Assembly (NCBI GenBank): GCA_031267075.1 | Contig: JAIRZU010000005.1 | Coordinates: 17,399-81,398, forward strand | DNA from: Holosporales bacterium | Lineage (GTDB): Bacteria; Pseudomonadota; Alphaproteobacteria; RUG11792 | Direction of reading: 5' to 3' | Length of the DNA: 64,000 nucleotides | Shown here: positions 17,949 through 20,533 of the stretch, one piece after another | Position numbering within the stretch: position 1 is the stretch's first letter | Layout of the letters: each line of letters begins with the position of its first letter | Translations under genes and position numbers: made by a program | The notes under the pieces: model-generated | What the model was told of the DNA's origin: nothing | The model's input: the letters and a program-made list of their open reading frames with translations, nothing else | The model's database searches: none

Positions 17949-18010
17949 CCCCTCCTCAGGTAGCTTGTGGATCTCCAAAGATGTGCTTGACACATTCTCT
18001 CTCACCATGC
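17949..18010 (+). promoter_or_regulatory. 62-bp repeated upstream module containing TTGACACATTCT (copy 1)
   Basis: Near-identical to 19620-19681. TTGACA at 17987-17992. Lies upstream of the secreted ORF at 18093. Confidence 0.4.
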
Positions 18011-18092
18011 AAAGCGAGGGAGGTAGTTGACAGGATCTTTCAACACTTGTACGATGCACGACACGAAATGAAAGATCCCTGAAGTGTGTAAG

Positions 18093-18746
18093 ATGAAGAA
18101 ACAGATAACGATCTCGATGGCGATAATAGCTCTGGCTGTTATTGCACAACCTACTTCAGCTAGTAGCCGATCAGAAGGTTCTAGTGAACGCCGGGTTTTT
18201 GGGAACGTACTTGTAAGAGAACAGAATGGATGGACCGTTTTCACCCCACTACCGCTGGCGTATCTACAACCGGACGAAGAACTGATAGATTGCGGTTGGG
18301 GTGTACGATCGTCGGAACGGTGGGGGGAGGATGCACGTGCAGAACTCCAAAGGGAAGAGAGAGCTTACCCTCCCGAATCCCTACAATCAGAGTTACAAGA
18401 AAACGTAGACCCACTGATTCCCTGGGATGCACGCGCAGAACTGGCTGCTCGAGGGGTAGTGCACGCTTCCCCACCAAGAGGATGGCAACCACGCCTGGAG
18501 GAGGAAGATCACGAACTGCTGCTGGGAGAAAACGTAAAACCCCCGATTCTCTGGGATAGGTCTATGGAACAACAAAGTGGATGGATACTACCGCTGGCGT
18601 ATCCACAATCGGACGAAGAGCTGATAGAGAGCGGCTGGGGTGTACGATCGTCGGAACGGTGGGGGGTGATGAAGAGTAGATGTTGGAAGGCGTCGTCGCA
18701 GCCCACCGAGGAGATAGAGCGTGTGCAGACGAGAGGAGATAGTTAG
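18093..18746 (+). CDS. Secreted repeat protein
   Basis: MKKQITISMAIIALAVIAQPTSA signal. Duplicated PLPLAY(L/P)Q(P/S)DEELI(D/E)(C/S)GWGVRSSERWG module. Confidence 0.5.
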   Translation: MKKQITISMAIIALAVIAQPTSASSRSEGSSERRVFGNVLVREQNGWTVFTPLPLAYLQPDEELIDCGWGVRSSERWGEDARAELQREERAYPPESLQSELQENVDPLIPWDARAELAARGVVHASPPRGWQPRLEEEDHELLLGENVKPPILWDRSMEQQSGWILPLAYPQSDEELIESGWGVRSSERWGVMKSRCWKASSQPTEEIERVQTRGDS

Positions 18747-18868
18747 CCCTGCGCCTTCCTCGAGAACAGTGAGTACGAGTAGATAAAAGAATTGACACAT
18801 TCTTTCGTATCACAGTATAGTTATAATATGAAATGAAAGTTCAGTGAAATGCACGAGAAGGAAACAAG

Positions 18869-19585
18869 ATGAACAAGTATGTGATGATGTTGGTCGTATC
18901 AGCAATGTTAGCAGTGGGAGCAGGAGTAGCTCAGGCGAAGACTCTAGCTGGAAGAGACTGGCGAACAGCGAATAGACGGGAACAGCCGCCTCCCGTAGCC
19001 GTTCAACCTGAAAGTAAAAATCCCACTGAAGGTAACCCTCTCACTCCTGACCAGTTTGCTTCCCTAGATGACATGAGTGTATCAAAAATGGTGGAACTAC
19101 CAGAGGCAGTACCAGCTCTCCCTCTCCCTGTAGTAGAGACAGTACCGGCTCCATCACTAGAAGCACTACGACAGTGGAAACAGCGGAATTGGACGGCCAC
19201 CATTAAAGACGTATCTCATTCAAACCCACTCGAGTGTCGGAATCCATACGTAGTAGAGCGCAGCCTTGCTACCATACCGTTCCAAAATAAAATAGCCCCT
19301 GGGAAATTCGCTGGAGACTTTAGCACCGTAATATTCGAAGCGGATGACTACGGCAGAGTCATCATCACAACATTGCACAACGGCTGTCACCCAATGTTCA
19401 CTACCGATGGAGACCACAATCACGTAATAAACTGGAAGGGAGTAACGTGTTACCGGCGCAGCGGATCAGGCTCATTCATGTCAATATCGAAGAAGGAGGC
19501 CGAAAAGATAAAGATACGGAGCCGCTTTGAGACAGCGCTCAAAACGAGCATGCAACTTGCGAAGGCCTGCACAGAGACCCCATAG
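18869..19585 (+). CDS. Secreted hypothetical protein (MNKYVMM signal-peptide family)
   Basis: MNKYVMMLVVSAMLAVGAGVAQA. TTGACACATTCT lies about 75 nt upstream (18793). Confidence 0.55.
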   Translation: MNKYVMMLVVSAMLAVGAGVAQAKTLAGRDWRTANRREQPPPVAVQPESKNPTEGNPLTPDQFASLDDMSVSKMVELPEAVPALPLPVVETVPAPSLEALRQWKQRNWTATIKDVSHSNPLECRNPYVVERSLATIPFQNKIAPGKFAGDFSTVIFEADDYGRVIITTLHNGCHPMFTTDGDHNHVINWKGVTCYRRSGSGSFMSISKKEAEKIKIRSRFETALKTSMQLAKACTETP

Positions 19586-19619
19586 AGATCGGTAACCTCT
19601 CACTCTCGCAAGCTACTCT

Positions 19620-19681
19620 CCCCTCCTCAGGTGGCTTGTGGATCTTCAAAGATGTGCTTGACACATTCTCTCTCACCATGC
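19620..19681 (+). promoter_or_regulatory. 62-bp repeated upstream module containing TTGACACATTCT (copy 2)
   Basis: Near-identical to 17949-18010. Lies upstream of the ORF at 19726. Confidence 0.4.
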
Positions 19682-19725
19682 TACGATATACGACATAAAC
19701 TCAGCGACTCACGAGGGAGATTGAA

Positions 19726-20007
19726 ATGAACAAGTATGTGACGATGGCAATGGGGGCGGTAATGCTGGCAGCTGCTGCTCAGGGTAGGGTCCCTGATATG
19801 GGAAGAAGTGACTACGATGGGCGGCGCGGCCGTATTGTTCAGGAAATCTACAGCGAAGTGGACAACCGGTGTATGGGGGAACTCTATGAGGTGACGAGAA
19901 AGATGAAACGACGGGCTGGCCAGGATGGAAACCCAGAGCATACCGAAGCTGGAGCAGAGGGGCAAAGCCGGCCAGGCCCATTCTCACCGTGGTCCATAGA
20001 TGAATAG
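19726..20007 (+). CDS. Small secreted hypothetical protein (MNKYV signal-peptide family)
   Basis: MNKYVTMAMGAVMLAAAAQG. 8-nt overlap with the next paralog. Confidence 0.45.
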   Translation: MNKYVTMAMGAVMLAAAAQGRVPDMGRSDYDGRRGRIVQEIYSEVDNRCMGELYEVTRKMKRRAGQDGNPEHTEAGAEGQSRPGPFSPWSIDE

Positions 20008-20533
20008 ATATGTAATGATGATGGCAATGGGAGCGGTGATGCTGGCAGCTACTGCTACCTCTTCCAATGCCGGGGAGCTGGAGCCTCAAGACTGCCATCA
20101 ATTGCCGCGCCCGTGTTCTCTTCCTGTTACTCTTGAAGGTCACGTGGCTGTGAATACGGAAGTGGCGGATTCATCCGAGTCTCAAGAAACTCCCAGGCTA
20201 ACGCGCTCGCGTTCTCTTCCTGTTACTCTCGAAGATCAGGTAGCTGTGGATACGGAAGTGGCGGATTTATCCGAGTCTCAAGAACCTCCCAGGCTAACGC
20301 GCTCGTGTTCTCTTCCTGTCACTCCCGAAGAGTATGAGGATGCGGGACAGCAGGCCGACGCGCGCACGCTAAACTGGGTGTGCGGCATGGTGGCCGAGTT
20401 CGGGCCAGACCTCCCAAGACTAGCCGCAGTATGTAGAGCCCTTGGAGAATCTGCGCTGCCACCAGCCTCACTATTTAGCCGCCCTGGAGAATCCTCTGAG
20501 CCGCCACCAGCCTCACCCCTCGATCCTCAATAA
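20000..20533 (+). CDS. Secreted protein with 32-aa tandem repeats (MNRYV signal-peptide family)
   Basis: MNRYVMMMAMGAVMLAATATS. About 2.25 copies of SLPVTLE.xVAV.TEVAD.SESQE.PRLTRS. Confidence 0.5.
   Translation: MNRYVMMMAMGAVMLAATATSSNAGELEPQDCHQLPRPCSLPVTLEGHVAVNTEVADSSESQETPRLTRSRSLPVTLEDQVAVDTEVADLSESQEPPRLTRSCSLPVTPEEYEDAGQQADARTLNWVCGMVAEFGPDLPRLAAVCRALGESALPPASLFSRPGESSEPPPASPLDPQ
20115..20330 (+). repeat. 96-bp tandem repeat, about 2.25 units, in frame
   Basis: GTTCTCTTCCTGT recurs at 20115, 20211 and 20307. Confidence 0.85.

Follow-up and report, generated by a model that had tools for sequence, protein, structure and literature searches.

The region described here lies in a 64,000-nt stretch of contig JAIRZU010000005.1 (positions 17,399 to 81,398, forward strand), from the assembly GCA_031267075.1 of a Holosporales bacterium. 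This stretch is called the window, and positions refer to it unless another contig is named. The assembly comprises 883 kb and is 86% complete, for a genome of about 1 Mb. An Mrp/Nuo-type antiporter gene (16018–17901, PF00361) is followed immediately by positions 17902–20540, which hold four open reading frames on the same strand, termed ORF1 to ORF4 (Table 1). We found that the promoter, leader and signal-peptide segment at the beginning of such genes, which we call the head, recurs upstream of signal-peptide ORFs across the assembly, and that the mature parts behind it, the bodies, are not similar to one another.

All four translations begin with the n-h-c pattern of a signal peptide, as a first-pass annotation had claimed for the four consecutive ORFs: in each, a basic n-region leads into a hydrophobic core, and the residues at -3 and -1 are small. 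When the lipobox [LVI][ASTVI][GAS]C was looked for, no Cys was found at or near the predicted cleavage sites of ORF1–4. A signal peptidase I is encoded in the genome (TIGR02227 match at C66:3050–3676, 150 bits, above the curated cut-off).

Table 1 Coordinates of the cluster features and of a further head-family member in the window.
Feature	Position	Strand	Description
73-nt block, copy 1	17938–18010	+	Intergenic sequence with -35 box TTGACA at 17987 and 18-nt spacer, without -10 box
Predicted ORF1 promoter	18027–18055	+	TTGACA, 17 nt, TACGAT; 10/12 consensus; aligns with other family heads
ORF1	18093–18746	+	217 aa; predicted signal peptide MKKQITISMAIIALAVIAQPTSA, cleavage ..PTSA/SS; Trp-rich body; weak Shine-Dalgarno (SD) sequence
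Predicted ORF2 promoter	18792–18821	+	TTGACA, 18 nt, TATAGT; 11/12 consensus
ORF2	18869–19585	+	238 aa; predicted signal peptide MNKYVMMLVVSAMLAVGAGVAQA, cleavage ..GAGVAQA/KT
73-nt block, copy 2	19609–19681	+	Upstream part, -35 box and spacer of predicted ORF3 promoter
Predicted ORF3/ORF4 promoter	19658–19687	+	TTGACA, 18 nt, TACGAT, TG before -10 box; 10/12 consensus
ORF3	19726–20007	+	93 aa; predicted signal peptide MNKYVTMAMGAVMLAAAAQG, cleavage ..AAAAQG/RV; short charged body
ORF4	20000–20533	+	177 aa; predicted signal peptide MNRYVMMMAMGAVMLAATATSSNA, cleavage ..TSSNA/GE; start overlaps ORF3 stop by 8 nt
ORF4 tandem repeat	20106–20331	+	In-frame; 96-nt unit, 2.4 units, 90% matches
Further family member	37157–37540 (= C36:54555–54938)	+	TTGACT, 18 nt, TACGAT; ORF starts MRKYLKH...

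The bodies of ORF1–4 showed no similarity to one another by blastp, tblastx, blastn or jackhmmer, and in-frame repeats were present in two of them, which bears out their earlier description as unrelated or repeat-rich. ORF1 carries an internal repeat of 80 nt (18248–18327 and 18587–18666). The tandem unit of ORF4, the only repeat called by Tandem Repeats Finder in the cluster, encodes R(S/P)xSLPVT..VAV.TEVAD.SESQE.PRLT. ORF2 consists of a signal peptide, a Pro-rich linker and a C-terminal domain of ~130 aa with four Cys. The large-database protein searches covered ORF1, ORF2 and ORF4; each of the three matched only itself among 5.8 billion proteins, and ORF2 again matched only itself in an exhaustive HMMER search of 1.84 billion representatives. 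A Pfam scan at E <= 0.01 returned 0 families for ORF1–4, and tblastn and jackhmmer searches of the organism's own genome with the ORF bodies returned self-matches only. The single-sequence AlphaFold model of ORF2 was unreliable, with a predicted local distance difference test score (pLDDT) of 41.6.

In contrast to the bodies, the heads are recognizably related. ORF2, ORF3 and ORF4 begin with MN(K/R)YV, and the leader peptide of ORF1 is of a different subtype (MKKQ..). At the DNA level, the leaders of ORF3 and ORF4 were 82% identical over 57 nt. For ORF2 and ORF3, a 125-nt alignment reaching from the -35 box to codon 15 gave 65.6% identity. These values agree with the earlier statement that three of the four ORFs share a leader with nucleotide-level similarity. 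A consensus scan called three sigma-70-type promoters on the + strand of the cluster, with in silico distances of 38–48 nt between the end of the -10 box and the ATG. The same consensus was also found upstream of rpsL, rpsT, rpmE, acpP and eno, indicating a housekeeping promoter type, and rpoD is encoded within the window. Of the 42 consensus promoters having a downstream ORF, 26 were followed by a signal-peptide ORF.

ORF4 has no transcription-unit head: it lacks a promoter, leader and SD sequence of its own, and its ATG sits within ..ATAGATGAATAG.., 8 nt ahead of the ORF3 end. The first-pass reading needs correction for this gene. ORF4 is predicted to be co-transcribed and translationally coupled with ORF3, and since it overlaps the ORF3 stop without a promoter of its own, the four genes would form three transcription units rather than four.

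To find related heads, the three cluster heads were compared with the assembly by sensitive blastn, which yielded three further heads, all on contig C37 (6.5 kb). From the -35 box through to the start codon, the six can be aligned with one another. An nhmmer profile of the six recovered eight new sites at E < 0.02 (on contigs C39, C72 (two), C24, C29 (two), C36 and C5), every one of them directly upstream of a signal-peptide ORF, and 14 sites were recovered at E < 0.01 after iteration. A sequence-only Infernal model, R1, built from alignment A2, found 16 sites in the genome, each of them just ahead of an ORF with a signal peptide. A leader-only model was set aside as circular, having recovered just its own ten training heads. 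The promoter-plus-leader-plus-signal-peptide arrangement before non-similar cargo, proposed from the cluster, thus exists as a family with further members genome-wide.

The head consensus reads ..cTTGAC(a/t), 17–18 nt, gTAyAAT, ..aCrTAgACTcAaCAaTTCACaaAgGgAAc..ATGAAGAAACAAGC. It comprises a near-consensus sigma-70 promoter (TTGAC, 17–18 nt, TAyrAT) and a 35–45-nt, A/C-rich, weakly structured 5' untranslated region (UTR) with a conserved core (..AACTyArCAaTTCAC..; AACTCAACAATTCAC) and a GGA-type SD sequence, followed by an ATG-AA(G/C)-AA(A/G) start and a type-I signal peptide. One member of the family lies downstream in the window (37157–37540) and has a longer leader with a small CGC-GTAA-GCG hairpin. 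By eye, the alignment contains an MK/RRYLKL-type subgroup in which a longer leader places a tiny hairpin directly upstream of the SD sequence (window 37195–37215; C24:~1420, C10:~6300, C37:~1890, C5:~18160). The stems and GNRA-like tetraloops of this subgroup are CGC-GTGA-GCG, CGC-GTAA-GCG, a compensatory CAC-GTGA-GTG and CGCG-AAAA-CGCG.

None of the 120 body pairs within the 16-gene family was similar. Among 22 proteins of this kind, the parts beyond the signal peptide gave one marginal blastp pair (E = 0.003) and no tblastx or blastn match. Smith-Waterman z scores against shuffled sequences averaged 0.31 for the bodies, compared to 4.1 for the first 28 residues. The best body pair was ORF2 and C37_4964, which aligned colinearly over 137 aa of their C-terminal domains with 21% identity (E = 3e-4 as a single comparison); the alignment suggests whole-gene common descent for this pair.

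The cluster is not an isolated case in this genome. We clustered the upstream 110 nt plus the first 75 coding nt of all signal-peptide-like ORFs, which were defined by a crude rule that flagged 217 of 919 ORFs, with false positives expected. The resulting head families contained 26, 16, 13, 7, 7 and 3 genes, in addition to several pairs; the family of 16 is the one studied here, and the family of 26 is an AG-repeat family (MKSKLVTSTLILGLIACEAWSSRERE..). Similar bodies were found in 7/325, 0/120 and 5/78 pairs in the families of 26, 16 and 13, respectively. In total, these roughly ten head families take in ~85 or more genes, close to a tenth of all ORFs of the assembly. Given these genome-wide families, the four ORFs are a small sample of a genome-wide design. 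Some of the other head families (..MSTVCYG) may be lipoproteins.

A direct repeat lies upstream of ORF1 and ORF3. The first-pass annotation had reported a duplicated 62-bp module here; the duplication is real and slightly longer than claimed. Allowing one indel pair raises the identity of its two 73-nt copies from 90% (ungapped) to 92% (68/74). Identity reaches 97% in the 62-nt core, and a genome-wide search found 2 copies in the whole assembly, both in the window, and no others. The motif TTGACACATTCT occurs at 17987, 18792 and 19658 and at no other site in the window, compared to a chance expectation of 0.3, and three or more sites were reached in 1 of 100 shuffles. The third occurrence claimed earlier exists, with its start at 18792 rather than 18793. 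A Logan contig from run SRR14710922 matches 18637–19681 exactly and breaks at two of the repeats, which is the behaviour expected of true repeats in reads.

Both copies precede signal-peptide ORFs, as had been stated. Copy 2 forms part of the predicted ORF3 promoter. Copy 1, in contrast, does not serve as the ORF1 promoter: after the TTGACA at 17987 it has AAAGCG at the expected -10 position, and the consensus scan called no promoter from there. Lacking a -10 box in copy 1, ORF1 would have its working promoter at the second TTGACA, 40 nt downstream. The 16 nt following copy 1 (18011–18026, AAAGCGAGGGAGGTAG) resemble the SD stretch CGAGGGAGATTG of the ORF3 leader, as read from the sequence. We read copy 1 as a probable relic, or part, of a head that is stacked ahead of the ORF1 promoter proper. 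The 73-nt block was also considered as a terminator of the upstream gene and rejected, as no terminator-like site was called and its folding was at shuffle level.

A similar stacked layout was seen elsewhere. At C37:3043–3300, a family promoter, leader and ATGAAGAAG open a 57-codon ORF without a signal peptide, and ~35 nt further on a '..SVGCYG'-family head with a decayed -35 box (CTGACA) starts a 552-aa protein. Such a composite could have arisen by a deletion that left a solo head behind, or by insertion of a head upstream. The same two routes, head insertion or deletion of a body between two heads, could each account for stacking in general.

To estimate the age of the heads, we compared the different parts of ten of them. 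The mean pairwise identities were 1.00 for the -35 box, 0.79 for the -10 box, 0.77 for the start codons, 0.61 for the UTR core, 0.56 around the predicted transcription start, 0.47 for the SD region and 0.39 for the promoter spacer. The least constrained part of the head is thus near saturation and the functional parts are kept. Because the spacer is near saturation, bodies of equal age under weak constraint would be unrecognizable, which fits ordinary duplication and divergence.

Within the cluster, identity is distributed as a mosaic. ORF1 and ORF3 are 92% identical in the 73-nt block and 61% identical in the adjoining stretch from the -10 box to codon 20 (Fisher p = 2e-6). The signal-peptide segments of ORF3 and ORF4 were 78% identical, compared to 49% in the 80 nt upstream and 48% in the 118 nt downstream, where random sequence gives 50 ± 3%. 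The nearest head was often on the same contig, as in the pairs on C72 (0.71) and C29 (0.70) and in ORF1–ORF3. The mosaic identity indicates that pieces of heads were copied or homogenized after the bodies had become different.

We consider it fairly probable that the four ORFs belong, as local representatives, to a family of Sec-exported and probably host-directed proteins that is specific to the lineage of this reduced-genome alphaproteobacterium and evolves by birth and death. The head would provide strong constitutive transcription, easy ribosome loading and Sec export, followed by cleavage by signal peptidase I. The bodies would be fast-evolving, repeat-rich or disordered, and probably used at the interface with a eukaryotic host. 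Purifying selection on the head would keep only the head recognizable, and, as the last homologous stretch, the head would be the only substrate for recombination or gene conversion between paralogues, mainly neighbours. The 73-nt block before ORF1 would then be a recently copied or left-over partial head, with ORF1 running on its own promoter. ORF2 and ORF3 would keep full heads, and ORF4 would retain the signal-peptide segment alone and be expressed from a two-gene operon with ORF3. Transcription from the predicted promoters, export, a host-directed function and gene conversion as the homogenizing process are all inferred from the sequence.

The cluster had originally been read as a promoter-plus-signal module redeployed on different cargo. 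The head family on non-similar bodies and the mosaic identity agree with that reading, and the redeployment itself does not follow from them, as whole-gene duplication with divergence of the bodies, the heads being held alike by selection and gene conversion, fits equally well and is favoured by the weak colinear similarity of ORF2 and C37_4964 for that pair. In the redeployment scenario, a head or pieces of it would have been copied before unrelated or new coding sequence by illegitimate or short-homology recombination, and the bodies would never have shared ancestry. We think this unlikely, and several observations speak for it. The borders are sharp: ORF3 and ORF4 share only a signal-peptide segment of 57–60 nt at 78–82% identity, with random flanks and about 4 synonymous differences in 17 codons. 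Likeness extends even to the spacer in the heads of ORF2 and ORF3, whose bodies have no blastn match at word size 7. On C37, a B-type promoter, leader and ATG lie ~35 nt upstream of a complete C-type head, and the 73-nt block lies upstream of ORF1's own promoter. The bodies are singletons with an atypical GC content at third codon positions (GC3) of 0.47–0.49 at an overall GC of 0.50–0.56, compared to a GC3 of 0.55–0.56 in mrpD and gatA. However, the stacked heads are equally explained as solo heads after deletion of a body, and with a near-saturated spacer unconstrained bodies of the same age would also be unrecognizable. ORF2 and C37_4964 look like full-length remote paralogues. Moreover, no flanking repeats, target duplications or recombinase were tied to the heads; the only transposase remnant (20789–20998) lies outside them.

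A bolder version of the copying scenario, in which about a tenth of the genes (85 or more, in roughly ten head families) were built by copying heads before unrelated or new sequence, seems to us decidedly doubtful. If it were true, head copying would serve this minimal symbiont genome as a dedicated source of new secreted proteins, in place of ordinary divergence of paralogues, and stacked and solo heads would be its footprints.

Alternatively, the heads could be alike through a shared regulator, such as a transcription factor acting at the promoter, or a protein or small RNA acting at the UTR core, and not through descent or recombination. The greater conservation of the UTR core and of the predicted start region relative to the spacer would fit such a site, as would the position of all sites before predicted exported proteins and the subgroup hairpin CGC-GNRA-GCG with its compensatory CAC-GTGA-GTG version. 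We nevertheless regard this explanation as very improbable. The similarity extends over 80–125 nt (nhmmer E 1e-12 to 1e-19) and includes positions between the functional boxes, which argues for homology and not for convergence on a short site, and identity is graded by genomic neighbourhood. The leaders also showed no significant structure or Rfam match: z scores against shuffles were +0.65 to +1.58 for the three window leaders, the mean over 20 heads was +0.18 and no better than shuffles, and Rfam gave 0 matches at E <= 1 in 17800–21100. An RNA element in the leaders or in the 73-nt block was rejected on the same folding and Rfam results. Weak folding of the leaders is as expected of accessible initiation regions. 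A regulator site is thus unlikely as the sole cause of the likeness of the heads, and the conserved UTR core may have a role.

A conserved pair of regulator and site would also be expected in related genomes. Model R1 found no head in three genomes of the same genus and about 37 of the same family; the one match was at chance level (E = 0.006). The three same-genus genomes are distant, with MrpD 60–62% identical, and carry different genes downstream of mrpD, with no orthologous cluster at that position. ORF2 and the 2.7-kb region had no match in about 40 relatives. No second strain was found, as all database cluster members traced back to this one contig or to its Logan copy; a 21-nt leader word returned 0 matches in a metagenome scan. 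Contig scans for a close relative found none, the best named GyrB match being 56%, to a 'Rickettsiaceae bacterium' metagenome-assembled genome. The first-pass annotation had held that a lack of further family members, with an absence of conservation in related genomes, would count against it; further members exist, and absence from relatives is what model R1 gave, with the nearest genomes very distant. Within the available sampling, the head family appears specific to a species-level lineage.

We also considered whether some of the ORFs, especially ORF1, ORF3 and ORF4, are pseudogene fragments or chance ORFs behind relic heads. The searched ORFs have no homologues, the coding scores of ORF1 and ORF4 and the ORF1 SD sequence are weak, ORF3 is very short, the ORF2 structure model has low confidence, and the region also holds a transposase remnant and debris of palindromic elements. 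This possibility nevertheless seems hardly credible. In a codon model trained on 259 long ORFs of this genome, the annotated frame was the best of six for all four ORFs and clearly positive for ORF2 and ORF3. ORFs of 93–238 codons stand behind intact promoter, SD and signal-peptide heads, in-frame repeats are kept in ORF1 and ORF4, and the ORF3/ORF4 overlap is typical in form of coupled genes.

Several points weigh against the birth-and-death reading. Corrected for all 120 pairs, the match between ORF2 and C37_4964 is marginal (E about 0.04). The heads of ORF2 and ORF3 reach about 66% identity with the presumably unconstrained spacer (~68%) included, and their bodies share nothing, a pattern better explained by replacement of bodies than by plain divergence. 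Signal peptides were called by inspection and with the crude rule. The coding scores of ORF1 and ORF4 are barely positive (0.03–0.05 in the codon model), and the SD sequence of ORF1 is poor. As to an outer-membrane route for the putatively exported proteins, VirB4 was not found in the 86%-complete assembly; the one secretin gene found (C59:4358–5986; 542 aa, lipoprotein-like start, PF00263 at 97.6 bits) stands alone, next to a comF-like gene and without gsp neighbours. Finally, the head family is known from one genome only.

Conserved 5' regions on divergent secreted proteins have been described in other bacteria. The vlp, vsp and vpma genes of mycoplasmas are clustered and recombining, with a highly conserved 5' region that takes in promoter, leader and signal peptide, and with divergent, repeat-rich mature parts. 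They encode lipoproteins with dedicated switches, either a poly-A tract in the promoter or site-specific invertases. Unlike these, ORF1–4 have no lipobox and no long simple-sequence tract; the simple repeats present are a (TC)4 run in the promoter spacer, two G6 runs and an (AG)4 run in ORF1. A phase-variation switch in ORF1–4 was rejected because these repeats are shorter than known switches. The (TC)4 run lies inside the 73-nt block (17996–18003 and 19667–19674), at the position where spacer-length switches sit in other bacteria, and is too short to be called a switch. The G6 runs (..GAACGGTGGGGGG..) end both copies of the ORF1 repeat (18322–18327 and 18661–18666), and the ORF1 frame leads past the second one into a short basic tail.

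In the erp genes of Borrelia, according to PMC12018966 and references listed in PMC10016077, an upstream homology box and OspE/F-like leader peptides precede unrelated Elp bodies. Marconi et al. 1996 (as cited in PMC10016077) is the source for the upstream homology box family, and the titles of Sung et al. 1998 and 2000, cited in the same article, point to recombination around the shared 5' part as the proposed generator. The cluster resembles the erp genes (OspE / OspF / Elp) of Borrelia burgdorferi in having a conserved promoter-proximal region and similar leaders, with some mature proteins unrelated. The Erp proteins, however, are lipoproteins encoded on cp32 prophage plasmids and regulated by operator sites and RpoS. 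The leaders found here have no lipobox Cys, their promoters follow a plain sigma-70 consensus, and they lie on chromosomal contigs beside housekeeping genes; the 87.5-kb contig of the cluster also carries mrp, rpoD, dnaG, gyrB and pyk. The Pfam scan detected no Erp homology for ORF1–4, so that the likeness is architectural only.

The SVM-signal effectors of phytoplasmas share a conserved N-terminal signal-peptide motif on diverse small secreted effectors, as summarized in PMC8026896, citing Jomantiene et al. 2007. As in SAP11 and SAP54 of this group, a conserved signal peptide here precedes diverse bodies in a reduced-genome, host-dependent bacterium. PF12113, in contrast, does not match ORF1–4, and conservation here extends to the promoter and 5'UTR. 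Phytoplasmas are also wall-less Mollicutes and carry their SVM genes in potential mobile units, of which there is no sign here. The AG-repeat head family of the same genome likewise has a shared upstream region and signal peptide before unrelated bodies; it differs in head sequence and in the (AG)n tract of its heads, with no such tract in ORF1–4. The architecture is thus already known from Borrelia, mycoplasmas and phytoplasmas, and by sequence the cluster is a member of none of these groups.

The 32-aa repeat units of ORF4 (residues 37–106) each contain R(S/P)xSLP, as RPCSLP, RSRSLP and RSCSLP. RSxSxP has the form of the eukaryotic mode-1 14-3-3 binding or basophilic kinase motif. RS.S.P was found in 7 of the 1844 six-frame stop-to-stop ORFs of at least 100 aa in the genome, and two copies were found in just one. 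The ORF4 motif may mimic a host motif, or it may have arisen by chance in a single unit that was duplicated.

Downstream of ORF4, a 69-aa ORF (20789–20998) with an rve_3 match at E = 0.0012, below the Pfam cut-off, represents the transposase remnant, and the 48 nt at 20553–20600 recur at 88% identity on contig C51 (11669–11713). The interval 20540–21000 is likely the end of a decayed insertion sequence bounding the four-gene cluster. Two further predicted exported orphan proteins follow, one of 288 aa (21087–21953, starting MKVKIVLIAMMMNVACSA..) and one of 932 aa (22492–25290). Neither had a Pfam match or a paralogue in the genome, and their heads were not matched by model R1.

The scale of the head families in a genome of ~1 Mb suggests that much of its coding capacity is invested in a rapidly changing extracellular or host-directed repertoire. 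Where homology searches fail, the conserved heads offer a way to catalogue the whole secretome of an uncultured organism, and they are natural parts for expression and export that lend themselves to direct testing. If heads have indeed been copied onto new sequence, the birth of new secreted proteins could be studied compactly at this locus; if not, it would add a further case to the pattern long familiar from Borrelia, mycoplasmas and phytoplasmas.

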